Source of the DNA: an uncultured bacterium
GTDB taxonomy: Bacteria > Desulfobacterota_D > UBA1144 > Nemesobacterales > UBA2774
Length of the DNA: 64,000 nucleotides
Reading direction: 5' to 3'
Assembly (NCBI GenBank): GCA_963705505.1
Contig: CAVPJU010000002.1
Coordinates: 62,549-126,548 of the forward strand
The notes under the pieces were generated by a model that saw only the letters and a list, made by a program, of their open reading frames with translations, did not search any database and had not been told where the DNA came from. Made by a program: the position numbers and the translations under genes. Below, one piece after another: positions 24,061 to 58,053 of this stretch. How positions within the stretch are numbered: the stretch's first letter is position 1; every line of letters begins with the position of its first letter.

Positions 24061-24916
24061 TCAGGCCGCTTTAGAGCTGTTCTTAGCCGTCCCTATAAAC
24101 TCCAGCAGATCTGTGTTGACCTGATCCTGGTGTGTGGCCGTCAGGCCGTGCGGAGCGCCCGGATATACAAGGATCTTTGCTCCCTTGATAAGTTTGGCTG
24201 ATTTCTCCGCATGATTCTTGACGGGGACGATCTGGTCGTCATCTCCGTGCATCACCAAGGTCGGGATATCGAACTTCTTGAGATCTTCCGTGAGGTCGGT
24301 CTCGGAGAACGCTTTAATGCTTTCGTAGGCGTTTATTTGGCCGCACTGCATGCTCCAGAGCCAGAATTGTTCGAGTATCCCCTGGGACACCTTGACACCT
24401 TTGTTGGCGCCATAGAACGATATGGCTAAATCCTTGTAAAACTGTGAGCGGTCAGCGGCGAGCCCTGCCCGGAGCCCGTCAAACACCTCGATGGGCAGAG
24501 CCTTCGGGATTGGCTGCGGTCTTGAGCATAAGCGGCGGAATGGCAGAGACGAGGACGGCCTTGGCTACCCGCTTCGTCCCGTGACGACCTATGTAACGCG
24601 AGACCTCTCCGCCTCCCGTTGAGTGGCCTACAAGTACCGCCTCCTTGAGATCGAGCGCTTCGATGACGGCAGCGAGATCGTCGGCATAGCCGTTCATGTC
24701 GTTTCCTGAAGAGGTCTGGCTGGACCGGCCATGACCACGCCGGTCGAGCGCGATCGCGCGATAACCGTTACGCACCAAAAAGTGCATCTGACCGTCCCAT
24801 GCGTCCGTGCTCAACGGCCAGCCGTGGCTGAAAACTACGGGCTGTCCCTTACCCCAGTCTTTGTAATATATATCTATGTCTGCACCGTTTTCCTTACCAA
24901 CGTTAATATATGGCAT
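24061..24916 (-). CDS. cpo: Non-haem chloroperoxidase-type alpha/beta hydrolase (frameshift near 24495)
   Basis: [41 protein letters not shown] split over two ORFs. Confidence 0.85.
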
Positions 24917-39304: not shown

Positions 39305-41122
39305 TTAAATCACTGCCGTGAGCGACAGGAATAAAGCCGAGAGTGAGAACAGGAGCGCGGTAAGGATAATACCGACGTTGGCATACACTATATCACTCTT
39401 CGAGATACCCGCCCTTTTCGCCTTATAAGCCCTCAGGATAATAGTCGGACAGAGCAGGAACATATTTAACAGCATCGGTACGGTCAGCCACCAGGAATTC
39501 TTGAAGAGAGCCGAGATCAGGCTATCCGCCCCCGAGTGATTGATATCGGCCGCACGGGCCGCGAACAGCATAGCCGTCCCCACAAAACCGAGCCATGCTC
39601 CGCTGAACGAAGTCCCCGCCAGTAGCGATCCGTAATTCTCAGCCGCCCGGATACCGGTAAGCCTGCTCCTCATGCTGCCGTAGTAAAAGTAAATGAGAAA
39701 TCCGATATTCAGCCACGCAGCGAACCTGAGCCAGGAAGTGGGAGGCAGATAATATATTAGCCCGAGACATCCCAGTCCGCCGAGTATCGGAAGGACGATA
39801 CCTCCGGGGACGCGGAATGCACGTTTCATCTCAGGGTGTTTATACCGAAGCACTATAATTCCCGCCGAAACCAATATGAAAGCGAATAGCGTGCCGATAT
39901 TCGTCAGATCCACCATCTCGTCAAGGCTCGTGAACAGCGCGGCCGTACCCACGGCGGCGCCCGTGACAATAGTCGAGAACCAGGGTGTTCTGAAATTATT
40001 GTGAACCCCGGCAAACGCGCGCGGGAGTAGCCCGTCCCTCGCCATCGAGAAAAGGATGCGCGGCTGTCCCAGCTGGAATACGAATAGAACGGCGAGGTGT
40101 GCGATTACGGAGCCGAGCGCCACGACGAATATGGCGAGGCCCTTTATGTTCGCGTACTGGAGAGCGAGTGTAAGAGGCTCAGCCTGCTCCGTGGAGAGCC
40201 TATGAACGAGGTCCCGGTATGGAATCATACCCGTAAACACCGCCGCGACGATTATATAGAAAACGGTGCAGACCGCGAGGGATGCGAGGATCCCTATCGG
40301 GAGGTCTCTCTGCGGTCTTTTCGTTTCCTCGGCGACTGTGGATACCGCGTCGAATCCGATGTATGCGAAGAATATCACCGCCGCGCCCGAGGCGACTCCG
40401 ATGAAGCCGTTCGGCATGAACGGCTTCCAGTTATCGACCTTCATGTACCTGATACCGATAAAAATAAAGAGGGCGAGAACGGCGAGCTTCACTACCACCA
40501 TACCCGTTGCGAACCAGGCGCTTTCGCGGATTCCGATGAGTAGAATCACCGTTATCGCGGCGACGATGAGGAATGCGAGCAGATTGAAAACGACCGGCAT
40601 ACCGAAGATATGCGGGGCGCTTTCCATCAGTCCGGGTATCTTGCGGGCGGTTTCAAAATCCACGGATATCCAGTCCGGAATGACGATCCCCGCCTCTCTC
40701 AAAAATGTTTTCAGGTAGTTGGCACAGCTTATAGCTACGGCGACGTTACCTACGGCGTATTCAATTATCAGGTCCCAGCCTATGATCCACGCGACGAGCT
40801 CTCCGAGCGTGGCGTAAGAATATGTGTACGCCGAGCCCGATATAGGGACTAACGAGGCGAACTCCGCATAGCAGAGGGCGACGAACACACAGACCACGCC
40901 CGCGAGTCCGAATGAAAGCATGAGACCGGGACCCGCGCCGAGCCTGTGCATATCACCCGCCGCCGCTGTGCCGATCGTCGCGAATATGCCGGCGCCGATA
41001 ATCGCGCCGATTCCGAGCATCGTGATCTGGAGAGGGCCGAGCGCCCTTCTGAGTGAATACTCGGAAGGCCGGGATTCATCCAGGATTGCATCTATACTCT
41101 TCGTAGAAAATATCCCGCGCAT
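39305..41122 (-). CDS. APC-family amino acid permease with extra C-terminal TM helices
   Basis: GAIIGAGIF, GSAYTY, FAYIGFDAV, MARDGLLP. Confidence 0.92.
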   Translation of the reverse strand: MRGIFSTKSIDAILDESRPSEYSLRRALGPLQITMLGIGAIIGAGIFATIGTAAAGDMHRLGAGPGLMLSFGLAGVVCVFVALCYAEFASLVPISGSAYTYSYATLGELVAWIIGWDLIIEYAVGNVAVAISCANYLKTFLREAGIVIPDWISVDFETARKIPGLMESAPHIFGMPVVFNLLAFLIVAAITVILLIGIRESAWFATGMVVVKLAVLALFIFIGIRYMKVDNWKPFMPNGFIGVASGAAVIFFAYIGFDAVSTVAEETKRPQRDLPIGILASLAVCTVFYIIVAAVFTGMIPYRDLVHRLSTEQAEPLTLALQYANIKGLAIFVVALGSVIAHLAVLFVFQLGQPRILFSMARDGLLPRAFAGVHNNFRTPWFSTIVTGAAVGTAALFTSLDEMVDLTNIGTLFAFILVSAGIIVLRYKHPEMKRAFRVPGGIVLPILGGLGCLGLIYYLPPTSWLRFAAWLNIGFLIYFYYGSMRSRLTGIRAAENYGSLLAGTSFSGAWLGFVGTAMLFAARAADINHSGADSLISALFKNSWWLTVPMLLNMFLLCPTIILRAYKAKRAGISKSDIVYANVGIILTALLFSLSALFLSLTAVI

Positions 41123-41166: not shown

Positions 41167-42582
41167 CTATTGCTGAGGCTGCTTTTGTGAGAATTTCGCG
41201 AGTATAACGTCCGCTATCCCCTGATAATTCTTTCCGATACTGTGTCCGCCGCTGCGCACTATAACATGGGCGAAGCCCGGAGGGAGGCTCTCGCAGATTT
41301 CGTCACTGTCACTTTTGCCGTATATACATTCTATATCCTTTCCTTTTAACTTTTCGATCTCAGGTCTTACCGGGAGCGCCTTATCCCCCTGGGAGCCGCC
41401 TATCCAGTTCGTCAGGTGGAACTCGAGATCCACGTCATGACCGGGGCCCATGAGGACGATCGAATACACCCTGGAGTAGAGGTTTTCGGGCAGCCGGCTG
41501 ATCATGAAGGGCGCCACATCAGCCCCCATCGAATATCCGATAACGACGACATTCTTCTTGTTCCAGCGGTTGAGATAATAGGAGAGTATCTTCCCGAGGT
41601 CCTGCGAGATGCCCTCCGGAGTGCGGCGTTTCCAGAAGTAGTGAAGGGAATTTATACCGACCACAGGGATTCCATTTCGAGCAAGCATAGTGCTGATCCC
41701 TTTCTCGGTAGTACCCCATCCGCCGTCGCCCGAAATCAAAACCGCCATCGCGTCCTTCCCGGGAAAGCCCGCGGGGACCTCGACAAGGGGCAGGCCCTCG
41801 AGTTCCTTTATATCCACCTCGTCCAGATTCGTATCGGGTTTCGCGCTCAGGGAACTGAAAGCCTCCTTAAACTGCGGCATCCAGTTTTTGGGGACCGAGT
41901 ACCCGTGGCCGACTTTAGGGAGCATTACGAGAGTACTGTTTGTAACCTGCTTTACATAAGTCTCGGTCGCTCCGGGATCGCAGACCTGATCGATCGTCCC
42001 CTGAAAAGCGGTCCAGGGAACCTCAAGCGTCCTCGAAGCAAGGAAGATAACTCCCTTGCCCTTCGGACCCGGCTGCCATTCAAGCCCGTTTCCTTTGCAC
42101 AACGGCTTGGTCACAAGAAGGTCGGGACAGAAGCCGAGGCTTATGCCGCCCTTGAACGTATTGGACGGGGCCTGCACCAGCGCCGCGTACACAAGCGTTG
42201 CGCCCGAAGAATAGCCGACCAGAATGGGAGTGATATAGCGCGGGAGGTTGAGCTTTTCCTGTGCGAACTTGCTCAGCTCCTCGAAATCTCCCGGCGGATA
42301 TGAGCACTTGCTTTTAGATCCCTCCAGCTCCTTCAGATAATGGGTTATATCCACGCCGATTACGAGAGCATCGAGAGAGGAGAGCTCCCTCGCCATATCC
42401 ACTACGCCGAGGTTCCAGCCGCCGTCCCCGGAAACGAAAATTACGACACTTTTGGGTGAGGGTGTATTGTAATAAAGAGTTACCTCGCCGAACGGCCCGA
42501 ACCTGGCTTTTTCCTCAGTCGCGGACGCATAATTCGCAACCGATAGCGCGAACAAGATAACGAGAACCAGGACCGTTTTCAT
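41167..42582 (-). CDS. acvB: AcvB/VirJ-family aminoacyl-phosphatidylglycerol hydrolase
   Basis: Two SGDGGW motifs, GYSSGA and GYSMGAD; signal peptide. Confidence 0.85.
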   Translation of the reverse strand: MKTVLVLVILFALSVANYASATEEKARFGPFGEVTLYYNTPSPKSVVIFVSGDGGWNLGVVDMARELSSLDALVIGVDITHYLKELEGSKSKCSYPPGDFEELSKFAQEKLNLPRYITPILVGYSSGATLVYAALVQAPSNTFKGGISLGFCPDLLVTKPLCKGNGLEWQPGPKGKGVIFLASRTLEVPWTAFQGTIDQVCDPGATETYVKQVTNSTLVMLPKVGHGYSVPKNWMPQFKEAFSSLSAKPDTNLDEVDIKELEGLPLVEVPAGFPGKDAMAVLISGDGGWGTTEKGISTMLARNGIPVVGINSLHYFWKRRTPEGISQDLGKILSYYLNRWNKKNVVVIGYSMGADVAPFMISRLPENLYSRVYSIVLMGPGHDVDLEFHLTNWIGGSQGDKALPVRPEIEKLKGKDIECIYGKSDSDEICESLPPGFAHVIVRSGGHSIGKNYQGIADVILAKFSQKQPQQ

Positions 42583-42763: not shown

Positions 42764-43843
42764 CTAAATCTTCATCCTCGCGAGCACCCCGTTTATCTCG
42801 CCCTTTATACGCGCGAGCGGTACCCCCGTATTTAAAAACGCAATAAGCCCGAGCCCGAGGAGTGGTATCGAAAGGATCACGAAGACCGCGACCGAAAAGC
42901 CTGCCGCGACCGTCTTATCGACGCCGAAAAGGGCGAGCCCCACGACCGTGAAGAACTGGTACGTCCCGACGTTTCCGGGGGCGTTCGGGAGTGCCGTTCC
43001 GATATGGACGATGAGGAAGACAACGGCGCCCGTAGTAAACGGGAGACCGATGTTGAACGCATCCATGACGAGCCAGAAAGCGATTATTTCGAAGAAGATC
43101 ACGAAGAAGGAAATGACGAAGGACGCGTAGAAATAACGGGTGAGCCCGATTTCCTTCATTTCAAGCGCCAGCCGGTCGATGAAATTTTTCGCGATACGAA
43201 GCGGCTTCCATAAGGAGGGGTATTTGAGCAGGTAGAGATTGCCCTCTCCCTCGTCCTCGAGCTTCTTCTCCTCCCTCAATACGAGATAGAGGAAGAGCCC
43301 GGTTCCGAGAAGCACCATCGCTCCCAGGACCTTCTCGGACTCTATAAGGCGCGCGGGAAGGGGGGCAATAAACGCGGAGAGGCCGATTAATACCGCAAGC
43401 CACACGCTGTCAAAAAGACGCTCGACTGCTATTGAAGGAAAAATAGAGAAGAAGTCCCTCGACAACCAGCGGGATACGAGATAGCCCCTGACCAGCTCCC
43501 CGATGCGGAGCGGGAGAATTTCATTTGTGAAGAGCCCCGCGTATATTGCCTGAGTCGTCCGCAGTAAGGTTATATTCCCCTTTCCGAGGAGTAAAAGCCG
43601 CCAGCGCACGCCCTGAATGACGTAGCCCAGAATATCGATAACCATGGCAAGGACCGCCCATAGCCAGTGAACTCCCGAAAAGGTGCGGTAAAACTCACCC
43701 AGATGGATGTCATGAAAGACCCAGATGAGGCACGCGAGCGCGATGATATAACCGAGAAGAGGCTTCACGAACCTGGAAGCCCTCTTTTGCGGCGCAACGG
43801 GGCCGGTTTTTAACAGAGGGTCGTAATTTTCTATTCGAACCAC
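42764..43843 (-). CDS. Lysylphosphatidylglycerol synthase TM (flippase-like) protein
   Basis: RW..LL, N.ILP.R.GE..R, ERLFD, P.APG..G. Confidence 0.85.
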   Translation of the reverse strand: MVRIENYDPLLKTGPVAPQKRASRFVKPLLGYIIALACLIWVFHDIHLGEFYRTFSGVHWLWAVLAMVIDILGYVIQGVRWRLLLLGKGNITLLRTTQAIYAGLFTNEILPLRIGELVRGYLVSRWLSRDFFSIFPSIAVERLFDSVWLAVLIGLSAFIAPLPARLIESEKVLGAMVLLGTGLFLYLVLREEKKLEDEGEGNLYLLKYPSLWKPLRIAKNFIDRLALEMKEIGLTRYFYASFVISFFVIFFEIIAFWLVMDAFNIGLPFTTGAVVFLIVHIGTALPNAPGNVGTYQFFTVVGLALFGVDKTVAAGFSVAVFVILSIPLLGLGLIAFLNTGVPLARIKGEINGVLARMKI

Positions 43844-45513
43844 ACCTTTTGACCATTCAGCTCAGTTAAATTACCGATAGCGATAGCCAATTTCGGCAGG
43901 TCAAGCGGATTTTTGTAGATAGTATATCGAGGCTCCCAGTAACTCGCAAATTTTGATTTATGCAGCCTCAGGCCGGCGAAGCTGAAAAGGAAATTCATAC
44001 GTTTCGAGAAATAATAAATAGTTTTCTCCTCTATCGAGGCTTCGTCGTTTTCCCTAAAGCCCGACATGGGCGCCATGCCGAGATTGAACCGCTCGTATCC
44101 CTTGTTCTTGAGGGACTCCAGCAGCTTCACTATTAGGTAGTCGATTATACCGTTAGGAGCCTCTTCGCGCCTCCTCATGAGATCGACGGTGGCTTCACCC
44201 GCCCTGAACGACGGAATTATATTTACGAACGAGAGTATCCTGCCCTGTGCGTCCACCGCGGCGAGGACGGCGGTCGATTTAATATAATTGGGGTCGAACA
44301 TGCCGAGTGTAAACCCGCGCTCCCTTCGCCCCGGTATCTTGAGCCATTCATCGGATACCTCCTTCAATTCGAGGATAGTCTTATCGTCAACGGGCGGCTC
44401 AAATGTCTTTATCCCGATTCCCGATTTCTCCATCTTATTCATCGTATTGCGGAGGTCTTTCATCCTGCTGCCCGATATTGAAAATTTATTGAGATCAACA
44501 ATCGCATCGTCCCCTATCTTGAGCTTCCTGAACCCGAGCTTCTTGAAGATCGGCAGGAAATGGGGCAACGCCTGATGGAAGGCTACGCGCCAGTCGTTCT
44601 CGCGGCAGAATTCCATGAAATTCCTTATCGTCTCCTCGATTTCCTCTTCGGGCCCCACGGGGTCGGCGAGCGCCACGGCGAAATTGGACCCCACTCCGTA
44701 GGCGATAAACGAGTTCTTCGAAGGGGAGAAAAAGAATGCCTTGTCCGCCCATAGCTTGAAATAATCCTGCGAGTCGCACCCGTATTTCTCCGCTATTCCC
44801 TTCGCGATGAGCCGCTCCCGAGGAAGTGTCCTGTACCTGTAGATCACGGGCATGAAGATGGAAAGGACGGAGTATGCAATGGCCATAATGGAAATTAGAG
44901 AAAGAGAATCCAGAAACCACATCGCATAGCGGGTCCGGGGTATGAGTTCCGGATCGCCGATCAGGGCGAGGTGCTGGAATGTTCTGTGCACCGAATCCGC
45001 GAGCGTAAAATTAATCCCGAAGTCCTTCGTGTCCAGAAACCAGAACCCTACAACGCCGTATGTGAAGGCGGCCAATACGGCCAGCAGCAGGCGTATCCCC
45101 CACGAGCCCGGACCCGGGATGCCGCTGTTAACTGTGAAGCTTGAGCGTGCCGAGATCAGGAGGACTATAAGAACCAGAGACAAAGTCGCTTCTTCATAAT
45201 CGAGACCCTTCGTCAGATGAAAGATCACGGAAAAAGACAGAAGGAGAAGCACTATATGATAAGCCCTTCTTTTGCGTTTAAATATGTTGATTGAGGAAAC
45301 GACAAGCGTAAACCCTATTATCAGCGTGAGAAACCTGGAAACATGAAGGAAGGCGATCGGGAAGATTTCATGCAGCGCATTGAGGCGGTTAGGCAGACCG
45401 GGACCAATGAGGGAGAAAAGGTTCAGGAACCCGCTCCCCAGTGTCGCAAGGGAAACGATCAATACGAGTACGGATTTCGTATTGATATGAGTAAACAGTC
45501 TCTTTCCCCACAT
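43831..45513 (-). CDS. mprF: Aminoacyl-phosphatidylglycerol synthase (MprF synthase part: short TM region + DUF2156)
   Basis: HLTKGLDYEEA, DPVG, KIGDDA, ERGFTLG, DLMRR, NLGMAPMSG, GLR..K.KF...WEPRY. Confidence 0.82.
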   Translation of the reverse strand: MWGKRLFTHINTKSVLVLIVSLATLGSGFLNLFSLIGPGLPNRLNALHEIFPIAFLHVSRFLTLIIGFTLVVSSINIFKRKRRAYHIVLLLLSFSVIFHLTKGLDYEEATLSLVLIVLLISARSSFTVNSGIPGPGSWGIRLLLAVLAAFTYGVVGFWFLDTKDFGINFTLADSVHRTFQHLALIGDPELIPRTRYAMWFLDSLSLISIMAIAYSVLSIFMPVIYRYRTLPRERLIAKGIAEKYGCDSQDYFKLWADKAFFFSPSKNSFIAYGVGSNFAVALADPVGPEEEIEETIRNFMEFCRENDWRVAFHQALPHFLPIFKKLGFRKLKIGDDAIVDLNKFSISGSRMKDLRNTMNKMEKSGIGIKTFEPPVDDKTILELKEVSDEWLKIPGRRERGFTLGMFDPNYIKSTAVLAAVDAQGRILSFVNIIPSFRAGEATVDLMRRREEAPNGIIDYLIVKLLESLKNKGYERFNLGMAPMSGFRENDEASIEEKTIYYFSKRMNFLFSFAGLRLHKSKFASYWEPRYTIYKNPLDLPKLAIAIGNLTELNGQKVWFE

Positions 45514-45724: not shown

Positions 45725-46978
45725 TCACCCCTTCGTCCCCGCTCGCAAAATTCTTTTCTTTATCGAACCTATAAATTGCCCGGAGCGGCGGACAAGCTCG
45801 AATCCGGAATACATGACCAGATGCCATGCGCTCTCCATGCCGAAGACGTGCTCGAGGAATTTCGGAAACCCGATAGCCCTCGCGAATAGATTTTTACCGC
45901 TGTTCTCGCTCGAATAGGACCGCCAGAGGAAACGGAGCTCTAAAACGCCGTCGAGTACGCCCGGGGGCCTCGTCCTCACGCCGTATTCGAAATACCCCGC
46001 CTTCGATACGGGTATCCCGTCGAGTCTACGAATGACGGGCTCGGGAACGGGGGTGTTTAAAAACGGATTCAGGTACCTGAGGGCATCTCTCACGGGGAGG
46101 ACCTTGCCGTGCATCTGCGCCGCGCTTATGAACCTCTCCCAGTCTATCCCCTCCCCTTCTCTGTTCAATATGGCGGCAGCGTCCGCAACCCAGCGTATGG
46201 GCGGGACGGTGTTCCACGCGACGCCGTGCGCGCATACCTGAAGAAGCTGGTCTGCGGGATCGAGAGCGAGCGCCGGCACTCCTTCAACGCCTATATCCCG
46301 CGCGCCTTTCCAGAATTCCGCATCCGCATCCGGCTGGTTATACCCGTGGAGAAGGTGCCAGTGGAGGTCGATCGTGAATTCTCCGGGATTAGTGAAGTCC
46401 TGACCATGCCTGACAGAAAAATATTCCTCCGAGAAATCCTCGACCGTCCTTTCCCGGGGTGTCCATCCGAGCCGGGAGAGGAGCTTCATATCGGAAAAAC
46501 CCTTGAGCGGGGTTACGGACGGGCGCCATCCGAGCCCGGTGATGATGCCGATAGCTTCGCGGACCCTCCGTGTCGGGACGAGGATGTCCGCGTCCATCAT
46601 CGGACGGAGGCCGGAGTCCCCATAATAAATAAGGGCGAGCGCCGCGCCCTTAAGCAGTATCGCCGGCATGCCCCTTCTGTTCAGCTCAGCCAGCAGTCTG
46701 GAGACCCTCCCGTAGAGCGTCCCGTTGTTCTCGCGTGTCTTGATATAGACCCACCTGAATATATTCATGAGCGGATCATCGACGCCGTTCGATTTCAGAT
46801 TCGCGTAGAGCAGGGGAAAGAGCCTGTAAGAGCCGGGGTCCACACAGTCTATATCAGCCGAGGACTTCCATTCCCGGAAAGCACTGACGGCTTCATCGCC
46901 TTTAAGTATAGAAGCTCTTAGCAGAAACTCCTGCTCGGGCGTGGGCCAGCATCCTCCGTGTCCTTTCCCTTTTATCAT
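45725..46978 (-). CDS. Nucleotidyltransferase family protein (NTP_transf_5-like)
   Basis: LLKGAAL...Y.....RPMMDADILV and IDLHW. Confidence 0.85.
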   Translation of the reverse strand: MIKGKGHGGCWPTPEQEFLLRASILKGDEAVSAFREWKSSADIDCVDPGSYRLFPLLYANLKSNGVDDPLMNIFRWVYIKTRENNGTLYGRVSRLLAELNRRGMPAILLKGAALALIYYGDSGLRPMMDADILVPTRRVREAIGIITGLGWRPSVTPLKGFSDMKLLSRLGWTPRERTVEDFSEEYFSVRHGQDFTNPGEFTIDLHWHLLHGYNQPDADAEFWKGARDIGVEGVPALALDPADQLLQVCAHGVAWNTVPPIRWVADAAAILNREGEGIDWERFISAAQMHGKVLPVRDALRYLNPFLNTPVPEPVIRRLDGIPVSKAGYFEYGVRTRPPGVLDGVLELRFLWRSYSSENSGKNLFARAIGFPKFLEHVFGMESAWHLVMYSGFELVRRSGQFIGSIKKRILRAGTKG

Positions 46979-47228
46979 GAGGAGACTTCACCGCGAAAAG
47001 CAGTATTTATAATACCAGAGATAATTATCTTCACTGCGCTGGTATTGGACAAGCTCACGCGAACGTGCGTGACAGGCATGAAGACAAAGGTATTAACAAC
47101 TGCCTAAGTTGTAGGAAGTGAGAGCACAACATGTATGGGGAGAATATGACTGGGACGACCCAAAGCTAATTGGTTCGTCCCGGATTCAATTCAAAAAGAT
47201 ATCAAAAGGATTGTTGCCTAAACCCCTA

Positions 47229-47393
47229 TTACGGTATATTACTGCTCTGCGCGTTCGCTGTCGTAAGGTTCAACTTCTGGTTGAGCATCATCACGGATAT
47301 TACTGTCGGGATGATGAACGCGCCCTTTGTAACCTTCTCGAGGAACTCGCGCCGTTCGGGGTTAACATCATCTAAGAATTTCTTATTGCTCAT
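47229..47393 (-). CDS. 54-aa putative RiPP precursor peptide
   Basis: GGAGG RBS; MSNKKFLDDVNPERREFLEKVTKGAFIIPTVISVMMLNQKLNLTTANAQSSNIP; lies inside the RRE/kinase/GT cluster. Confidence 0.65.
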   Translation of the reverse strand: MSNKKFLDDVNPERREFLEKVTKGAFIIPTVISVMMLNQKLNLTTANAQSSNIP

Positions 47394-47515
47394 GAACCAT
47401 CCTCCATTCATTCGATACATAGCAATATATCATATTACAAGCAGACATACAAGCAATATATGTATAATTCTGGACAAGTTAGGCTCCTTTATGCCTTTCT
47501 GTTAATTACGGCGCT

Positions 47516-49282
47516 TTAAAGGGAGCGCATGAATTCCAGTACTCTTTGCTGTGAGCTCTCGTTAGTCCATTTATTCTCGATCCATCTGCTTCCCTGCATG
47601 GCGCGTATAAGAAAGCTCCCGTAATTCTGATAAACGTCCCATATAGCATCCTCGATGTCCTGCACGCTCACCCTGTCCCACTGCCCGTAGACACCCCCCT
47701 CGTAATCCGCATCTTCCTTTCCATTTACAGGTATAGCCTTGCAGAATCCGGACTCGATGAGCTCACGGTGGACCGGGATATCGGACAAAATAGTCGGGAT
47801 GCCCAGATACAGGCTCTCCCGCGGGGTGAAGGACCACCCTTCCCCATTCGATGGAAACACGTAACAGGAAAGCCCACTATACCACCTGGATATTTGATCC
47901 TCAGTCAAAAAACCCTCCGTCCATTCCACGAACGGCGTGCTTTCAATCAGCCCGAGAAACGGTGTATACATCCAGCCGAACAGGGTCGCCACATGGACCG
48001 CAAGTCTGAGTCCCGGAATCTTTCCAATGAGGTTAACGCAAGCCTGGTAGAGCTTGAATAAATTTTTTCTCTTGTTAGGCACGCCGAGAAAACCTATACG
48101 GAATATATCCGCCTTTGGCTTTTGCCTATACGCCCTATTATGCCTCGTAAACCCCTGCTGAATGACTTCGATAGGGATTCGTACGCCGGACGCGATGAAC
48201 ACGTCCTTCATATGATCGTGAGGAACTATACAATAATCGTAATGCTCGTTCAGGGCCTCAAACCAGAAAGCCGGAATCTTCGTTGTTTCGAATGTCGTAT
48301 AAACGACGTTGACATTCTCTTTCGAAAGCCGGTTCGTATAAAAAGACGGCATGCCGCTCACCAGCACCTTTTTGCCCTTGAGGCTCCTAGTATCATCTAT
48401 TACGACCCCGATCCGGCTCATCCGCTCGAAGACCGTCGTTAGTCCGTCGAACGGAGCTACCTCGAATGTCCTGAGTATATATATATCGTCCGGTATACGG
48501 ATCACAGCGATCTCTTTGTCGATCCCTGTTAATAATTTTTCGACATCCGCTTCACTGGCCTTCTCTTTAAAGGGCTTCGTGCCAAGGTGCTCAAACCTCC
48601 ACGATCCCTCGTGATGATGCCTGCCGTAGTTCCCGAAATGGCAAGAAACGGCTCCTGTAACCGGACATGTGCGGTCGAGGTTGGGAAGGAACACTACGTC
48701 CCTGAACTTATCCCGGCAGTCGTGATATACGATCGTCACGAGACCGGGGCCTGTCGATTCGAGGACATCGTTATCCGTAACTATTGCACGGCGCGACTCC
48801 TCCGCCATCTTTCTCAGTATATGAAGCAGGAACGGATGCCCGGGCTCACTTCCGAACATGTAGTTCGCCACGCGCAGCCGGTCCCTATGGCCGAGCCTCT
48901 CTGCATCCTCCTCAGTAAGAGTCGACTCTTCGCCGAACACGCAGCGGAACTCGCATAGGTCATCGATGGGGCTCAGACATTCGATATCCATATCCACATA
49001 AAATCCTCCGAACGCATAAACAGCGACGATCCGGAAAATATCCGTTTTCTGAACGGTCAATGCCCTGTCATATATCGGCAGAAACATCGGGAAGAACCTC
49101 GAAACCGTGTCCCTGCAGGCTTCATCATCATAAAATTTATATTCCCAGCCCGGATGGAGGGCGATGAGATTTTCCCGGTATCGTCCGTACTTCCAGGGAA
49201 CATCCTCGCTCTTATAAGTCTGGTGGATTATTTTTGGGATGGCCATCGTCGTCAGCGGTTTTTCCGGGGTGTCACTCCTCAA
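47516..49282 (-). CDS. Fused glycosyltransferase: GT32-like (DxD) + GT4-like domains
   Basis: IPKIIHQT, GGFYVDMD, TGPG; C-terminal RKN and PSNGEGWSFTPRE. Confidence 0.85.
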   Translation of the reverse strand: MRSDTPEKPLTTMAIPKIIHQTYKSEDVPWKYGRYRENLIALHPGWEYKFYDDEACRDTVSRFFPMFLPIYDRALTVQKTDIFRIVAVYAFGGFYVDMDIECLSPIDDLCEFRCVFGEESTLTEEDAERLGHRDRLRVANYMFGSEPGHPFLLHILRKMAEESRRAIVTDNDVLESTGPGLVTIVYHDCRDKFRDVVFLPNLDRTCPVTGAVSCHFGNYGRHHHEGSWRFEHLGTKPFKEKASEADVEKLLTGIDKEIAVIRIPDDIYILRTFEVAPFDGLTTVFERMSRIGVVIDDTRSLKGKKVLVSGMPSFYTNRLSKENVNVVYTTFETTKIPAFWFEALNEHYDYCIVPHDHMKDVFIASGVRIPIEVIQQGFTRHNRAYRQKPKADIFRIGFLGVPNKRKNLFKLYQACVNLIGKIPGLRLAVHVATLFGWMYTPFLGLIESTPFVEWTEGFLTEDQISRWYSGLSCYVFPSNGEGWSFTPRESLYLGIPTILSDIPVHRELIESGFCKAIPVNGKEDADYEGGVYGQWDRVSVQDIEDAIWDVYQNYGSFLIRAMQGSRWIENKWTNESSQQRVLEFMRSL

Positions 49283-50003
49283 TTCCGTCGAGCATACGGG
49301 ACGCCTCTTCCCCGGTGTGTTTACCGTCGAGGATATCCTTTATTAGCGCGCTCGATTCGTCGGATAACATTTTTGAAGCGGACAATATTCTTTCCCAGTG
49401 TTCTTTCGTCCAGACATTATTCCCGTGATACACGTAAATATATAACTTCGGCATGATTATCGGGAATACCAGGCTCCTCCTGAAAAGCTCCGTCACGAGA
49501 GGGGTGTCTTCTCCCCTGTCCCTCGCTTCGTATCTCAAGCCCTCCCCGATGAGAGATTTTTTGCATAGCAGGCTCCCCTCCCACGGCCTCCGGGTGGATA
49601 CGTATGCCTTTTTCCCGATATCGTCGAAGATGAGCCAGTGCATCATAATGCTCGCCTGCATGCCGCTCTTTTTTATCACGTCCATCTGGAACGAGAGCCT
49701 CTCGCGGTGGGAGAAGTCGTCGTCGTCCCACTGGCAGAAGTATTCCCCGCCGCACACTTGCACGGCCAGGTTCCGGAGCGCTCCCAGGATGAGCCGGGGG
49801 GACGAGGGCGATTCGATCTTAACTATATTATCGTCATTCACTCCTGCGAGGAATTCCGCGGTATTAATGTCGCCGCTCTCGTAAACGACGACGAGCTCCC
49901 TCCGCGGGTAAGTCTGGTCCTTGAACGAGCGTATAGCCCTTTCGAGGAGCCTGGTCCGGGAACGGGTGACACATAGGCACGATATGAGAGGGTTGTCGTT
50001 CAT
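49272..50003 (-). CDS. GT2 family glycosyltransferase
   Basis: ISCLCVT, QTY, LGALRN, WDDDD, GED. Confidence 0.85.
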   Translation of the reverse strand: MNDNPLISCLCVTRSRTRLLERAIRSFKDQTYPRRELVVVYESGDINTAEFLAGVNDDNIVKIESPSSPRLILGALRNLAVQVCGGEYFCQWDDDDFSHRERLSFQMDVIKKSGMQASIMMHWLIFDDIGKKAYVSTRRPWEGSLLCKKSLIGEGLRYEARDRGEDTPLVTELFRRSLVFPIIMPKLYIYVYHGNNVWTKEHWERILSASKMLSDESSALIKDILDGKHTGEEASRMLDGIEE

Positions 50004-50004
50004 G

Positions 50005-51117
50005 TCATTCCCGGGATTTTTTGATGAGGGAGTTGAGGAATTTGCGCTTCGTTTGGTATTCGAGATTATCTGGGTCGCACCCCGATGCGAGCGAATAATA
50101 TCTTTCGCTCTCCAGATATTTACCCAGCTTGTAATAACAGGTAGCCAGGGGTTCAAAAGAGAACTCGCCGAATATGCGGGAATCGTAGGCGAGCCTCCCC
50201 GGCTCGAGGTCCTCGATTGAAACCGATATGAGTGATGCGAACAATGGCACCGCTTCCGCGAATTTCCCTTCATGCATAAAAAGCATCCCGCGCATCCAGG
50301 TTATGAGATAATTATCGGGAAAAAATTCATCGGCCTCGCGCAGTAACGCGGTGGGGTCCTCCCCTTTCTCGTACTTCATGCGGATGAGGTCGTAATAAGG
50401 CTGAATTTCGACAATGTCGCGTGATTTTCTACCGCGGACGATCTCTACCGCCTTCATCCACGATTCCTCCGCACCCCGTGAGTCGCCTAGTGCCTTAAGC
50501 ACGACGCCCAGGTGCCATCTTAGATACACCCTCTCCGGGTCGTTCTCTATCTGTTTTTTCAGCATCAGCAGGTTACGGCCGTGTTTCCATCCGACGTCCC
50601 CGTCATAACCTAGATGGTCTATGGTGAGCGAGGATGAGCCGATCTCAAGACCCTCGTCAGCGGCGAGTGCCTTAATCGACTCGATCATGGATTCATGTAT
50701 GACTCCATGGAATCTGATCCTCGGAGTGTTACGGAAAATCCTGTATTCCTTATACGCGGTGTAGCCGGTGACGGGATGGAACAACACAGTATACGCGATC
50801 TTGCCCGGATCGGATAACATTCGTCTTACGTTCTCTTTGGAGACGGGCCTCAGCCTCTCGTCGGCGTCGATGTAGAGTATCCAGTCGCCCCGGGAATGTC
50901 CAAGAGCTTCATTCCTAGCAGCGGAGAAATCGTTATTCCACCGGTAATCGAATACCATAGCGCCGAACCCGGCGGCGATTTCCCTGGTCCGGTCGGTGGA
51001 GCCTGTGTCGACTATAACGATCTCGTCGACGACATCCCTGATCGAGCTCAGGCACCCTTCGAGGAATCGCTCTTCGTTACGCACTATCATGGAAGCGGAT
51101 AAAATTATTTCATCCAT
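50005..51117 (-). CDS. GT2 glycosyltransferase with C-terminal TPR-like repeats
   Basis: MIVRNEE, VDTGSTD, W.NDFSAARN, IDADE, IHE, HLGY, then helical repeats. Confidence 0.88.
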   Translation of the reverse strand: MDEIILSASMIVRNEERFLEGCLSSIRDVVDEIVIVDTGSTDRTREIAAGFGAMVFDYRWNNDFSAARNEALGHSRGDWILYIDADERLRPVSKENVRRMLSDPGKIAYTVLFHPVTGYTAYKEYRIFRNTPRIRFHGVIHESMIESIKALAADEGLEIGSSSLTIDHLGYDGDVGWKHGRNLLMLKKQIENDPERVYLRWHLGVVLKALGDSRGAEESWMKAVEIVRGRKSRDIVEIQPYYDLIRMKYEKGEDPTALLREADEFFPDNYLITWMRGMLFMHEGKFAEAVPLFASLISVSIEDLEPGRLAYDSRIFGEFSFEPLATCYYKLGKYLESERYYSLASGCDPDNLEYQTKRKFLNSLIKKSRE

Positions 51118-51167
51118 AATCCGACCGATATGAAGATTCCCTCCGCAAGCTGAAAATCCTCCCGCCT

Positions 51168-51968
51168 CTATCCGGTACAGACAAGAGACATCTTCTCCCT
51201 CATGGAATCGGCCGCAGCCGAGAGGTCCCCGATGCTCAGCAAATAGCAATCAGCATTGTCTATGACCCTGCAGAGACCGCCAATCTTCAGATGGTCCCGT
51301 GACTCAGAAAGGAATGACATGGGCATTAACCTGTTCGCCATCTCAATTTTGGTGCATTCCTCTATTCGAGACTCCCCTCCGTGGTTGGGCTCGAGGAAAA
51401 ATATAACATCGGCCTTCCGGTTCTCGATCTTCCACTCGTAGCCGGCGTCGAGTGGTGAGAACGAGTATATTTTACCTTTTCCGTAGAGGCTTATGAAAGG
51501 GACTTCCCCGATCATAGATTCAATATCCGGAAGAAGTCCTATACTCCCGTCCTTGAGGTGAAACCGCCTGGGGAAAGGCATTGTCCCGCTGTCGTCTATG
51601 AGGACCAGCTCGTCACCGCTTACCCCGAAACCCTCCGACAGCAGGTGCGTCATCAGCGTGCTTTTACCGGCACCTTTGTCACCCACAGCAAGGAACCGGT
51701 ATCCGTTATAATCTCCGCATCCGGCGTGTATGCGTATAGTGTTGGCGACCCCACCCAGCGCTACCGAGTTTACAAAGCCCAGGAGGTTGTAGATAAGGTT
51801 ATCGTAATCTGGCGGGGAATGTTTGAACTCCCCGTTTTCGAGGATCATGTACCTCCCGTCCTCGAGAGATATGTCGTAGACCGTCTCAGTCTCAGCGGGG
51901 AAATCCTGCTCGGCGCCGTGGGATATAAAGTCGATGCCTCTGAAGACGGATTCGTCTTCGGTCCTCAC
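51168..51968 (-). CDS. HPr kinase-related P-loop kinase
   Basis: IHAG...GDKGAGKST...SGDE...PFPR. Confidence 0.8.
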   Translation of the reverse strand: MRTEDESVFRGIDFISHGAEQDFPAETETVYDISLEDGRYMILENGEFKHSPPDYDNLIYNLLGFVNSVALGGVANTIRIHAGCGDYNGYRFLAVGDKGAGKSTLMTHLLSEGFGVSGDELVLIDDSGTMPFPRRFHLKDGSIGLLPDIESMIGEVPFISLYGKGKIYSFSPLDAGYEWKIENRKADVIFFLEPNHGGESRIEECTKIEMANRLMPMSFLSESRDHLKIGGLCRVIDNADCYLLSIGDLSAAADSMREKMSLVCTG

Positions 51969-52009
51969 CGTAAAAAGAGAACGGAGTAGACGGAAATTCT
52001 TGGTGTGGA

Positions 52010-52267
52010 TTATTTAACCAGCCCTTCCTGAATTAGTGTATTGAGACAGTCGGCAACTTCTTTGTCAGGGGGCTCCGGAAGACTATAAGCCTCCTTTACG
52101 ATAGCCACTATGTCGGCGGCGCTGTTCTTACCCGTGCACGCTTCGAGGACCAGCACGGCGGTTTTATTCAGGTAGTGCACCTTGTCCTTCTCGCTCTGGT
52201 ATATGACATAGCCGTCTTCGACCTCGTTGATCTCGATGCCGGCCGAAATCTTCGGAAATTCGTTCAT
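52010..52267 (-). CDS. PqqD-family RiPP recognition element (RRE)
   Basis: 85 aa; VEDGYVIY...VHYLNKTAVLVLEACTG...L..EGLV. Confidence 0.88.
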   Translation of the reverse strand: MNEFPKISAGIEINEVEDGYVIYQSEKDKVHYLNKTAVLVLEACTGKNSAADIVAIVKEAYSLPEPPDKEVADCLNTLIQEGLVK

Positions 52268-52400
52268 AGTGGTAAGCCCCGCTGCAATTGGAATATTATA
52301 AAACTGAGCACTAAGTATCCCGAATTGCAGACCAGGTTTCAAGACCGCGGGAAAAGGTTATCGGCCAAGAGATATCAGTAGCGATTGGCAGATGGAAGGC

Positions 52401-52437
52401 AAAAAAAACCCGGAGCTTCGGGTGGGACGCTCCGGGG
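52401..52437 (-). terminator. Intrinsic terminator
   Basis: CCCGGAGC-loop-GCTCCGGG followed by T8 on the minus strand. Confidence 0.8.
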
Positions 52438-52477: not shown

Positions 52478-52633
52478 TTATGACTGAGTGGGGGTGTCGC
52501 CCGAGCCCGTAGGCTGGTCGGATGAGGTGTCTTTATCCTTTCCGCCGCAGGCGAGTGCATTAGATGTAACGAGAACTGCTCCGCCCAACGCGATCCCCAG
52601 TGTGATTGCCAGTGTGAATAATATCTTTTTCAT
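52478..52633 (-). CDS. 51-aa exported peptide or small lipoprotein (not in ORF track)
   Basis: AGGAGG RBS; MKKILFTLAITLGIALGGAVLVTSNALACGGKDKDTSSDQPTGSGDTPTQS; own terminator. Confidence 0.7.
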   Translation of the reverse strand: MKKILFTLAITLGIALGGAVLVTSNALACGGKDKDTSSDQPTGSGDTPTQS

Positions 52634-56961: not shown

Positions 56962-57040
56962 GTTTACTCCTTACTACAAAACTGATTATTATTCCAAACA
57001 TATTGCCATTATTTAATTTATACTTTATGTTATATTGATT

Positions 57041-57355
57041 ATGAGCAAGTTGCTTTTAACATTGTCAATGTTGATGTTTCTATCATCTTGCACTTGCACT
57101 CCCAATCCCACAGAAAAACAAAAAGAGTTCGCCAAAAAACTCCTTGAAACTCCAGGTATTCTTCATACCGAGTGGCATACTAATTTATCGCTTTGGATTC
57201 AAATCGCACTCAATTCTCTAGGTCCGAACCCGAAATTGCAGGCACAGTTACTCGCTGATCAAATCGTTGCTGCTGGTTATAAATACACTGAACAAGATAT
57301 TTGTGCTAATATATATTTTGGTGATTTCAATCAATTAGCTAGTTCCTGTAATTAA
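57041..57355 (+). CDS. Small lipoprotein, array 1 copy 1
   Basis: LSSC lipobox; family motif PTEKQKEFAKKL..PGI...W...LG.NPK..AQ.LADQI...G....IC..IY...LASSC. Confidence 0.85.
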   Translation: MSKLLLTLSMLMFLSSCTCTPNPTEKQKEFAKKLLETPGILHTEWHTNLSLWIQIALNSLGPNPKLQAQLLADQIVAAGYKYTEQDICANIYFGDFNQLASSCN

Positions 57356-57373
57356 AAATACAGTCAACAATTT

Positions 57374-57688
57374 ATGAAACTATTACCTCCAATCTTATCC
57401 ATATTTATGTTTCTAATATCATGTGCTACTAATCCAACGGAAAAACAAAAAGCATTCGCGATTTCACTTAAAGATAAACCGGGAATCGTTGATGCAACTT
57501 GGCATGATTCTTGGAATCTTTACGTCGCAGTTGATCTTGATGCTCTAGGATCAAACCCGAAATTAAAAGCACAAGATGTTGCTGACCAGATTGCAGACAA
57601 AGGGCTAAAGGATACTCAACAAACCATATGTGTTACTATTTATTTTGGCAATCATAATAGATTAGCCGATTCTTGTAGAAAGTTGTAA
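57374..57688 (+). CDS. Small lipoprotein, array 1 copy 2
   Basis: LISC lipobox and same family motif. Confidence 0.85.
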   Translation: MKLLPPILSIFMFLISCATNPTEKQKAFAISLKDKPGIVDATWHDSWNLYVAVDLDALGSNPKLKAQDVADQIADKGLKDTQQTICVTIYFGNHNRLADSCRKL

Positions 57689-57738
57689 CACTCCCCACTA
57701 TGACCATTGCTAAATTTATTCTTTGTATTTAATCGCCT

Positions 57739-58053
57739 ATGAAGAAAATACTCCTCTACTTATCCATATTCGTACTTCTAATCTCATGTGCTAATAATCC
57801 AACAGAAAAGCAACTAACTTTTTCAAAAAAGCTGCTCAGTACGCCTGGAATAACACATACAGAATGGGGAAATACTTTGACTTTATGGGTAAAAGTGAAC
57901 CCCGATTCCCTTGGCTTAAACGCGAAACCAAAGGCACAAGAACTCGCTAATAAAATCGCTTCAGCCGGAGTGAGAGAAACACAACAAAATATTTGTGTAG
58001 TTATTTATTTTGCGAGCTATAAGGAAATAGCCAGCTCCTGTATAAATTTTTAG
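57739..58053 (+). CDS. Small lipoprotein, array 1 copy 3
   Basis: LISC lipobox and same family motif. Confidence 0.85.
   Translation: MKKILLYLSIFVLLISCANNPTEKQLTFSKKLLSTPGITHTEWGNTLTLWVKVNPDSLGLNAKPKAQELANKIASAGVRETQQNICVVIYFASYKEIASSCINF

Follow-up and report, generated by a model that had tools for sequence, protein, structure and literature searches.

The closest described relatives of the system considered here are tailoring genes of lasso peptides, which belong to the peptides that are made by ribosomes and modified after translation (RiPPs). In paeninodin- and pseudomycoidin-type clusters these genes encode a RiPP recognition element (RRE; protein B1), an HprK-type kinase (PadeK or PsmK) and a nucleotidyltransferase of the NTP_transf_5 family (PsmN). 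The accessible portion of the pseudomycoidin report (PMC6993621) describes phosphorylation of the C-terminal Ser by the HprK-type kinase and a requirement for PsmN in placing one or two hexoses on the Ser phosphate; a PsmN D134A/D136A mutant was inactive. The same three gene types stand side by side in the window analysed here, a stretch of 64,000 nucleotides from contig CAVPJU010000002.1 (assembly GCA_963705505.1) of an uncultured bacterium of the lineage Desulfobacterota_D. They form part of a set of seven genes whose product is neither a lasso peptide nor a glycocin. We are confident, if short of certain, that this set is a leader-guided, peptide-modifying cassette of non-lasso type. The account that we prefer, and consider moderately likely, is of a conserved cyclase-free cassette which would phosphorylate and glycosylate the Ser-Asn start of a short core peptide in the cytoplasm, with subsequent export by the twin-arginine translocation (Tat) pathway and cleavage after Ala-Asn-Ala.

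Open reading frame (ORF) and profile scans of the window show the seven genes in head-to-tail order on the minus strand, from position 45725 to 52267. All of the co-oriented genes listed in the initial annotation, a reading of the letters of this DNA without database searches, are present where it had put them: RRE, kinase, a family 2 glycosyltransferase (GT2) with tetratricopeptide-like (TPR) repeats, a second GT2, a GT32–GT4 fusion, a 54-residue peptide and a nucleotidyltransferase.

52010 to 52267, minus strand: PqqD-family RRE, 85 residues from its ATG (PF05402, E 3e-9)
51168 to 51968, minus strand: P-loop protein of HPr-kinase/PEPCK fold, a putative peptide kinase, 266 residues (TIGR04352, E 2.5e-15)
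50005 to 51117, minus strand: GT2-TPR glycosyltransferase, GmaR/SunS-like (PF00535, E 6.4e-21, plus TPR)
49272 to 50003, minus strand: GT2 glycosyltransferase, 243 residues from an internal ATG (PF00535, E 2.2e-8)
47516 to 49282, minus strand: fusion of a GT32-type DXD domain and a GT4-type C-terminal domain (PF04488, E 3.7e-10; PF00534, E 1.8e-7)
47229 to 47393, minus strand: precursor peptide of 54 residues, with GGAGG upstream of its ATG
45725 to 46978, minus strand: protein of NTP_transf_5 nucleotidyltransferase fold, PsmN-type (PF14907, E 6.4e-40)

The open frame of the PqqD gene extends to a TTG at 52342.

Compared with lasso clusters, the cassette has no cyclase, no B2 protease and no ABC exporter, while up to four extra glycosyltransferase domains accompany the tailoring genes. 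Its peptide is unrelated to lasso precursors, having a signal-like leader, a core of about six residues and no C-terminal Ser. In the window the initial annotation had seen neither a lasso cyclase or B2 protease nor a radical SAM enzyme or an exporter. Profile scans of 70 window ORFs (14 + 56) agree: none of the first three turned up, and neither did an ABC exporter or a C39 gene. A search for the lasso genes in the whole genome (2.88 Mb, 93.6% complete) yielded, for the Asn-synthase-like cyclase PF00733, only two partial PP-loop matches covering profile positions 18-84 of 354, in open frames of 369 and 230 residues; for the B2 protease, PF13471, there was a single match on another contig, of 21 bits against a cut-off of 26. 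No lasso cyclase, B2 protease, exporter or protease was found by Pfam in the homologous loci examined. A lasso cluster was rejected on the absence of cyclase and B2 protease from window and genome. A decayed lasso cluster, from which cyclase and protease have been lost, would share its RRE, HprK-type kinase and NTP_transf_5 protein with the paeninodin- and pseudomycoidin-type clusters. The missing genes are absent from window, genome and examined homologous loci alike, however, all genes of the cassette are intact and conserved over phyla, and a core of six residues is too short for a lasso, so that decay of this kind is scarcely credible.

The 54-residue peptide comprises a Tat-signal-like leader (residues 1-48), ending in Ala-Asn-Ala, and a core, QSSNIP (residues 49-54). 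In the leader E-R-R-E-F-L-E-K is followed by GAFIIPTVISVMML and then by A-N-A. The peptide has 215 short homologues, which are 76-96% identical among the 120 listed, a range above the 46-69% identity of the enzymes in four related loci (L004-L006 and L074). Across 35 aligned copies residues 1-50 are nearly invariant and the rest is hypervariable, with no variation at all at R14, R15, E16, F17, K20, G24, A25, F26, P29, A46, N47, A48 and S50. The leader is followed by a conserved Ser-Asn and then a hypervariable tail of 3-12 residues, and (S/A)-N is kept directly after A-x-A across the family. Among 114 Dadabacteria copies, collected with a pattern in which Ser at position 2 is obligatory, the stretch from Gln49 on is 5-13 residues long and Asn follows the pattern's Ser, at position 3, in 102. 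These cores are rich in Pro, Asn, Asp, Val and Gly and nearly without Lys, Arg and Cys; the C-terminal residue is Pro in 41, Gly in 21 and Ser in only 2. The window peptide, ending in SSNIP, has a C-terminal Pro, no C-terminal Ser and no Cys, and the peptides of three distant loci (L009, L012 and L013) do end in Ser. Of 139 representatives, 78 contain an N-x-S/T motif, where shuffling of the same stretch gives a mean of 36; the motif peaks sharply 3-4 residues after A-x-A. Genomes hold between one and nine leader paralogues. A profile of the leader retrieved 649 cluster representatives (50% identity) from several phyla at E <= 1e-3 among 1.84 billion proteins.

The cassette as a whole is conserved as well. 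The full order of PqqD, kinase, GT2-TPR, GT2, GT32/GT4, peptides and NTP_transf_5 is kept in three Dadabacteria loci (L004-L006) and in four loci of genomes from the same genus or family (L074-L077). Six distant loci retain PqqD, kinase, a small ORF and GT2-TPR; they come from a Thermodesulfobacteriota metagenome-assembled genome (MAG; L007), a Bradyrhizobium (L008), a Rhizobiales isolate (L009), a member of the Microthrixaceae (L010) and Pseudomonadota MAGs (L012 and L013). The small ORFs in these loci are built like the window peptide, and Pfam detects NTP_transf_5 together with changing glycosyltransferase sets (GT4, Anp1, Mannosyl_trans3 and Gly_transf_sug) in L007-L010 and L012. For kinase and peptide alike, the closest relatives are recorded under Candidatus Dadabacteria or Thermodesulfobacteriota as source. 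Judged by gene order, the cassette's core predates Dadabacteria by far, and since synteny is conserved across phyla the arrangement lies far beyond chance.

The initial annotation had proposed a cassette dedicated to the peptide and free of a cyclase, and had named as contrary evidence a lack of the conserved peptide in homologous loci. The proposal has held up, since homologous loci do keep the peptide. Of 120 genomes from the phylum, 20 hold the peptide, 20 have a strong kinase match (E <= 8e-96) and 19 have both. In the two genomes with only peptide or only kinase the loci lie at contig edges. As related genomes are not independent, the overlap serves as a description, not a test. A reverse test was made with 36 metagenome loci fetched by a leader pattern derived from non-Dadabacteria members alone. 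The leader ORF was present in 35 of the 36. One or more of PqqD (19), kinase (22), GT2-TPR (23) and NTP_transf_5 (8) are found in 33 loci, in the same order; the three without any cassette gene are contigs of 1347, 1413 and 4444 bp. Where the locus is 8 kb or longer, PqqD and GT2-TPR are found in 9/9, the kinase in 7/9 and NTP_transf_5 in 5/9. Two of the metagenome loci, L093 and L094, appear to be duplicates of a single sequence.

The PqqD protein always lies just upstream of the kinase. It shares 75-86% identity with its counterparts in Dadabacteria loci and 37-47% with those in distant loci. It matches the NCBIfam PqqD models of lasso and HPr-rel-A systems below their cut-offs (TIGR04353, 24.3 bits against 35), and it hits TIGR04248 weakly as well. 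In a predicted complex with the peptide it scored 0.43, while the best of three controls scored 0.01, with contact agreement between runs of at least 73% and a predicted local distance difference test (pLDDT) value of at least 54 for the partner. Of 157 solved complexes 116 reached the mark that this complex passes, as did 2 of 215 mismatched pairs; at scores of 0.60 or below it was reached by only 18 of the 157, and by both mismatches, so support for binding is weak. The pass may also reflect structures already known to the predictor, since RRE-leader complexes are among those solved.

The kinase-fold protein has no Pfam match and gives 56.4 bits against NCBIfam TIGR04352, 'HprK-related kinase A', where the cut-off is 200. 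A sequence search of the Protein Data Bank (PDB) found P-loop matches only, with HprK 1ko7 at E 0.031. The fold was settled by Foldseek, which for the AlphaFold2 (AF2) model (pLDDT 92.1) returned ATP-PEPCK (E 6e-7) and HprK/P 1kkl (E 2e-5) as best matches. The P-loop residues G96, G101, K102 and T104, together with D119, are invariant in 24 homologues. Its ESM Atlas neighbours go by the names HPr kinase family or 'HprK-related kinase A', with PF27840 (ScmC) present in some; the pair of PqqD and HprK-like protein therefore occurs in other peptide cassettes as well. The HPr-rel-A systems (TIGR04352/TIGR04353) and SynChlorMet (ScmC/ScmD) share this pairing with the window. Compared with these systems, the cassette has no second kinase B and, among the window ORFs, no radical SAM/SPASM partner, and its scores are all below the curated cut-offs. 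GT2-TPR and the present peptide family are specific to this cassette and set it apart from both.

The nucleotidyltransferase strengthens the resemblance to pseudomycoidin. A homologue adjoins the kinase in 46 of 69 kinase loci (tblastn), including many lasso-type loci of Bacillales, and the initial annotation's view of the two as a pseudomycoidin-type pair agrees with what the accessible portion of PMC6993621 reports. Residues D129-x-D131 of the window protein are invariant in eight sequences and correspond to the D-x-D whose mutation inactivates PsmN. No PDB sequence match to NTP_transf_5 was obtained. Separately, a Gemmatimonadales MAG (L014, 9720-11274) carries PqqD and an HprK-like gene followed by a Cys-rich protein of 159 residues whose signal-like N-terminus contains RR. 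That locus gave no GT2-TPR match and may represent another cassette that uses the RRE-kinase pair.

Among the glycosyltransferases, GT2-TPR is related to GmaR and SunS. GmaR is the flagellin O-GlcNAc transferase of Listeria, while SunS and ThuS are cytoplasmic enzymes that glycosylate peptides directly. All three have the architecture found here, a GT2 (GT-A) domain followed by TPR-like repeats. The PDB sequence matches of the window protein are GmaR (E 1.9e-31), SunS (E 1.5e-18) and 7msk (E 1.1e-14), which we take to be direct protein or peptide glycosyltransferases. Its DxGSxD (D37..D42) and D84-A-D86-E87 motifs are invariant in ten sequences from distant loci. The initial annotation had likened its architecture to that of glycocin glycosyltransferases such as SunS. 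Homology to SunS stands, but the score against the SunS model TIGR04195 is 72.8 bits (E 2.3e-20) where the cut-off is 350, and GmaR is the closer match. The rest of the cassette departs from the glycocin pattern of a Cys-containing helix-loop-helix core, a double-glycine leader and a SunT-type ABC/C39 exporter: the peptide has no Cys, no helix-loop-helix and a core of six residues, there is no SunT-type exporter, and RRE, kinase-fold protein and NTP_transf_5 are present. The second GT2 (49272..50003) is 58-66% identical in Dadabacteria loci, is absent from distant loci and shows weak similarity to WcaA and TuaG. In the fusion protein PF04488 covers residues 35-110 and PF00534 residues 457-517, and homologues align from about residue 10-13 onward. 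None of the six enzymes has a Kyte-Doolittle window above 1.6 or a membrane segment, and they should therefore act in the cytoplasm.

The closeness to GmaR and the weak similarity to WcaA and TuaG could also mean that a polysaccharide, or some other protein such as flagellin, is what the glycosyltransferases make or modify, the small ORF being a regulatory or accessory subunit and not a substrate. Action on lipopolysaccharide, exopolysaccharide or flagellin was the alternative named in the initial annotation. No flagellin gene (PF00669) was detected in the 93.6%-complete genome, however, the enzymes are free of membrane segments, and the cassette contains no polymerase, flippase or priming transferase. 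The RRE and the multi-copy peptide with its variable tail are hallmarks of a substrate, the peptide is linked to cassette genes in 33/36 of the metagenome loci, and the fusions to self-cleaving Hint and Peptidase_S74 domains described below make sense only for a substrate that is processed. We regard this alternative as highly improbable. Flagellin glycosylation as such was rejected on the missing PF00669 match, and periplasmic N-glycosylation was rejected because the genome has no match to the STT3-type oligosaccharyltransferase PF02516.

Tat signals consist of an (S/T)-R-R-x-F-L-K motif, a mildly hydrophobic stretch and an A-x-A site. The window peptide has all three types of feature: RR-x-F-L, a mildly hydrophobic stretch and A-x-A. 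A family consensus was drawn from 136 non-Dadabacteria representatives anchored on the invariant Pro. It has a basic pair (R in 52 and K in 43 at the first position, R in 119 at the second) followed by x-F-L-K-(K/R)-L, a middle stretch G-x-A-F-x-x-P-V-V-x-S-F-S-M-x-G-L, and A-x-A with Ala at its two positions in 98 and 108 sequences. In its sequence, this consensus is that of the n-region, hydrophobic stretch and predicted signal-peptidase site of a Tat signal. The highest 19-residue Kyte-Doolittle window of the peptide is 1.27 and none exceeds 1.6, the score expected of a membrane anchor over that length, so a Tat signal suits better than an anchor. The genome encodes TatC and two TatA/B proteins. 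Some members of the leader family (P0328, P0380, P0389 and P0443) end in PEP-CTERM-like sorting tails, by which export is implied. If the leader is an export signal, the absence of a protease and an exporter of its own would be accounted for. Even so, the prospect of Tat export of the window peptide, as predicted from its sequence, is somewhat short of even.

Two other views of the leader have to be weighed against this evidence. The pathway might be cytoplasmic with an ordinary leader that does no more than recruit RRE and enzymes, its likeness to Tat signals convergent or vestigial, and its product finished by an unlinked protease and transporter. Many RiPP clusters do rely on unlinked proteases. 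In favour of such a leader, and weighing on our preferred account, the window peptide matches no curated TAT_signal model, the best of the relatives' peptides (L010) reaches 15.7 bits where the TAT_signal cut-off is 16.7, others match formate_TAT with E 0.03-0.12, below significance, and K-R stands in place of R-R in 43 of the 136 representatives. Set against these points, A-x-A, n-region and hydrophobic build are kept across phyla, members of the family carry PEP-CTERM-like tails and CHRD-like or other passengers of secreted type, and no exporter or protease occurs in any conserved locus examined; an ordinary leader is unlikely. The other view holds that the peptide is not cleaved but remains as a membrane-tethered carrier displaying a glycan or phosphoglycan at the surface, with tails under diversifying selection as a surface antigen. 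Hypervariable tails on one to nine paralogues per genome, glycan-building enzymes that differ between lineages and the PEP-CTERM-like anchors of some relatives would fit. The hydrophobic stretch is nevertheless short and weak, the conserved A-x-A speaks for cleavage, and soluble enzymes would have to modify the tail before it crosses the membrane. We think a tethered carrier quite unlikely.

A general export signal at the N-terminus of a RiPP precursor has a parallel. Bufferins, as described in the accessible portion of PMC11626156, are RiPPs modified by multinuclear non-haem iron-dependent oxidative enzymes (MNIO) and carry Sec signal peptides, which are called there 'rare in bacterial RiPP precursors'. 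In that account the signal makes a dedicated exporter and protease unnecessary, as the signal-like leader would here. The bufferin signal, again as far as that portion of PMC11626156 goes, is of Sec type and dispensable for modification, whereas the leader considered here resembles a Tat signal, hardly varies and is paired with an RRE. Chemistry and enzymes of the two systems are unrelated.

The same leader also precedes larger proteins. In relatives the gene right after the kinase encodes 195-207 residues consisting of the leader, a tail of 3-7 residues and a domain that starts with Cys-Leu-Ser; in a wider set of leader-Hint proteins the tail before the Cys has 4-13 residues. Longer proteins sharing the leader number 126. 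Among the 120 of them listed, 105 have the order leader, tail and C-L-(S/P), 13 have C-L-T or C-L-H and two are frameshifted; Pro precedes the Hint Cys in 31 of the 105. Hint_2 matches all six fused precursors scanned, with E 2.7e-6 to 2.6e-3; their scores, 18.6-28.3 bits, lie below its cut-off of 28.4. A precomputed PF13403 match is recorded for many of the 120 listed, and for some the NCBI name is 'Hint domain-containing protein'. In 113 fused sequences Cys1 and S-x-x-H-P-T show conservation of at least 95%, and a terminal His-Asn is absent. Foldseek with the AF2 model of a fused precursor, built from six sequences and of low confidence (pLDDT 50.6), gave 40 matches at E <= 1e-3; each of those listed is an intein, a bacterial intein-like (BIL) domain or a Hedgehog domain. 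By sequence and model the fused domain would be a Hint domain built for N-terminal cleavage only. It shares Cys1 and S-x-x-H-P-T with the Hint domains of Hedgehog and BIL proteins, though it is seen in relatives and not in the window cluster, and it differs from them in being fused directly behind a RiPP-like core of 4-13 residues. In the window there is no room for a leader-Hint gene, because the stop of the kinase (51168) and the start of GT2-TPR (51117) are only 50 bases apart.

In the Bradyrhizobium locus the peptide is instead fused to a self-cleaving Peptidase_S74 domain (E 1.1e-7), and further S74 cases occur in the leader family. Tails ahead of Hint and S74 domains resemble those of the free peptides. 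Taken together, what follows the leader may be a short tail only, a Hint domain, Peptidase_S74, a PEP-CTERM-like tail, a CHRD-like part of about 200 residues, or stretches rich in His/Lys or Cys. With whole passenger domains and sorting tails on its members, the leader seems to serve proteins as well as peptides. Six members of the leader family (P0356, P0373, P0379, P0407, P0449 and P0451), of about 190-220 residues, have a ..GYVGP..F.AH.. domain. The genome analysed here holds three copies of the leader, that of the window and two truncated ones on another contig (C7, 56687-58255), where tails QSNVIICM and QSNVVVM flank a 2-oxoglutarate-Fe(II) oxygenase (PF13640, E 5.9e-13). These two copies adjoin an IS3-type transposase at the contig end, one is directly followed by a decayed Hint fragment of 57 residues, and both look like truncated leader-Hint genes.

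The course of events in our preferred account, phosphorylation and glycosylation in the cytoplasm followed by Tat export, can be set out as follows. The PqqD protein would bind the leader, and the kinase, by analogy with PsmK, would phosphorylate a Ser of the core. NTP_transf_5, by analogy with PsmN, would then add the first sugar to the Ser phosphate. GT2-TPR would glycosylate Ser/Thr or the conserved Asn, and the other glycosyltransferase domains would extend the glycan. The modified peptide would be exported by Tat and cut by signal peptidase I after Ala-Asn-Ala, the two replacing a dedicated exporter and protease, to leave a modified hexapeptide QSSNIP as mature product. In relatives with a C-terminal Hint or S74 domain, this domain would release itself and so set the C-terminus of the same short core.

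Several observations, in addition to the sub-threshold Tat models, sit uneasily with this scheme. Among Dadabacteria copies, no more than 38 of 102 short ones and 27 of 110 fused to Hint have N-x-S/T, and the window core QSSNIP is without it. Lasso kinases use a C-terminal Ser, while the window peptide ends in Pro and no more than 2/114 Dadabacteria tails have a C-terminal Ser. The substrate of the kinase-fold protein could be a sugar instead of the peptide. Two long metagenome loci (L098 and L099) have PqqD and GT2-TPR with no kinase match, and the predicted complex of PqqD and peptide is a weak pass only.

It is attractive to consider a broader version, in which a Tat-type signal doubles as the RiPP leader for RRE, kinase and glycosyltransferases, which would place a glycan or phosphoglycan in the cytoplasm on the residues just after the signal-peptidase site, and in which peptides and whole proteins are exported with an N-terminal glyco- or phosphoglyco-tag. 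Tat would be used because the cargo is already bulky, and Hint would give the core a C-terminal thioester for ligation to a second molecule, as in Hedgehog with cholesterol. This broader version is speculative and, on balance, doubtful.

Full-text searches of an open-access library, with subscription journals and supplements outside the scope, turned up no description of the cassette, of the peptide family, of a Hint-fused RiPP precursor or of a Tat-type RiPP leader. The parts come from known families, while their combination and the substrate family are new; the system belongs to RRE-dependent peptide modification, with a real chance of being a class of its own. If so, it would be a new class of ribosomal peptide and protein modification, with its own precursor family in several phyla, in which a lasso-type pair of kinase and NTP-transferase and a glycosyltransferase of GmaR/SunS type are reused outside a lasso or glycocin context. 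It would show how a RiPP pathway does without a protease and exporter of its own, and would tie Hint and S74 self-cleaving domains to RiPP maturation. To our knowledge it would also be the first case of a Tat-like export signal read by an RRE. A compact, leader-addressable glycosylation toolkit for peptide engineering could follow.

The limits of the cassette are set by its flanks. Upstream genes for a lipoprotein, a methyltransferase, an extracytoplasmic function (ECF) sigma factor and an M64 protein are syntenic only in the four loci of the same genus or family, and are absent from the three further Dadabacteria loci (L004-L006). Downstream, MprF and VirJ are not conserved beside NTP_transf_5, even within the genus. 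One further feature lies between the upstream lipoprotein gene and PqqD:

52408 to 52423, minus strand: terminator-like hairpin and T-run, a pattern match only

Such patterns number 11 in the region where 6.7 are expected; by its position this one is likely to be the upstream boundary. The cassette is taken to run from PqqD to NTP_transf_5 because flanking synteny fails and the terminator-like site precedes PqqD.

Several minor features were noted around these limits. Just upstream of PqqD an ORF of 51 residues (52478-52633, minus strand) has a lipobox (..ALAC) and a Ser/Thr/Asp-rich tail ending in Ser. It is 76-84% identical in the four loci of the same genus or family and not conserved in L004-L006, and the terminator-like site lies 3' of it; it is probably a separate small lipoprotein and not a substrate of the cassette. 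About 50 nt 3' of the peptide gene lies a hairpin without a T-run (47152-47181, minus strand; GGGACGA..UCGUCCC). Its folding (z -1.84, with 6 of 200 shuffles equally stable) is not convincing evidence; it could be a processing or stability element. Beyond NTP_transf_5 an MprF-like aminoacyl-phosphatidylglycerol synthase is split in two minus-strand genes, 43831-45513 (PF09924) and 42764-43843 (PF03706); next come a minus-strand gene for a VirJ/AcvB-type hydrolase (41167-42582) and one for an amino-acid permease (39305-41122). The MprF/VirJ stretch is an ordinary lipid-modification operon, unlinked to the cassette in relatives.

Elsewhere in the window, two adjoining short ORFs (24061-24916, minus strand) match the C-terminal and N-terminal halves of the alpha/beta hydrolase PF00561 and may be a frameshifted or split gene. 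Between 56000 and 64000 the G+C fraction is 0.37-0.47, against about 0.52 elsewhere, and no ORF there has a Pfam match; this low-G+C stretch may be a foreign island. Within it lie three tandem paralogous genes (57035-58053, plus strand), each of about 104 residues with a lipoprotein-like N-terminus.

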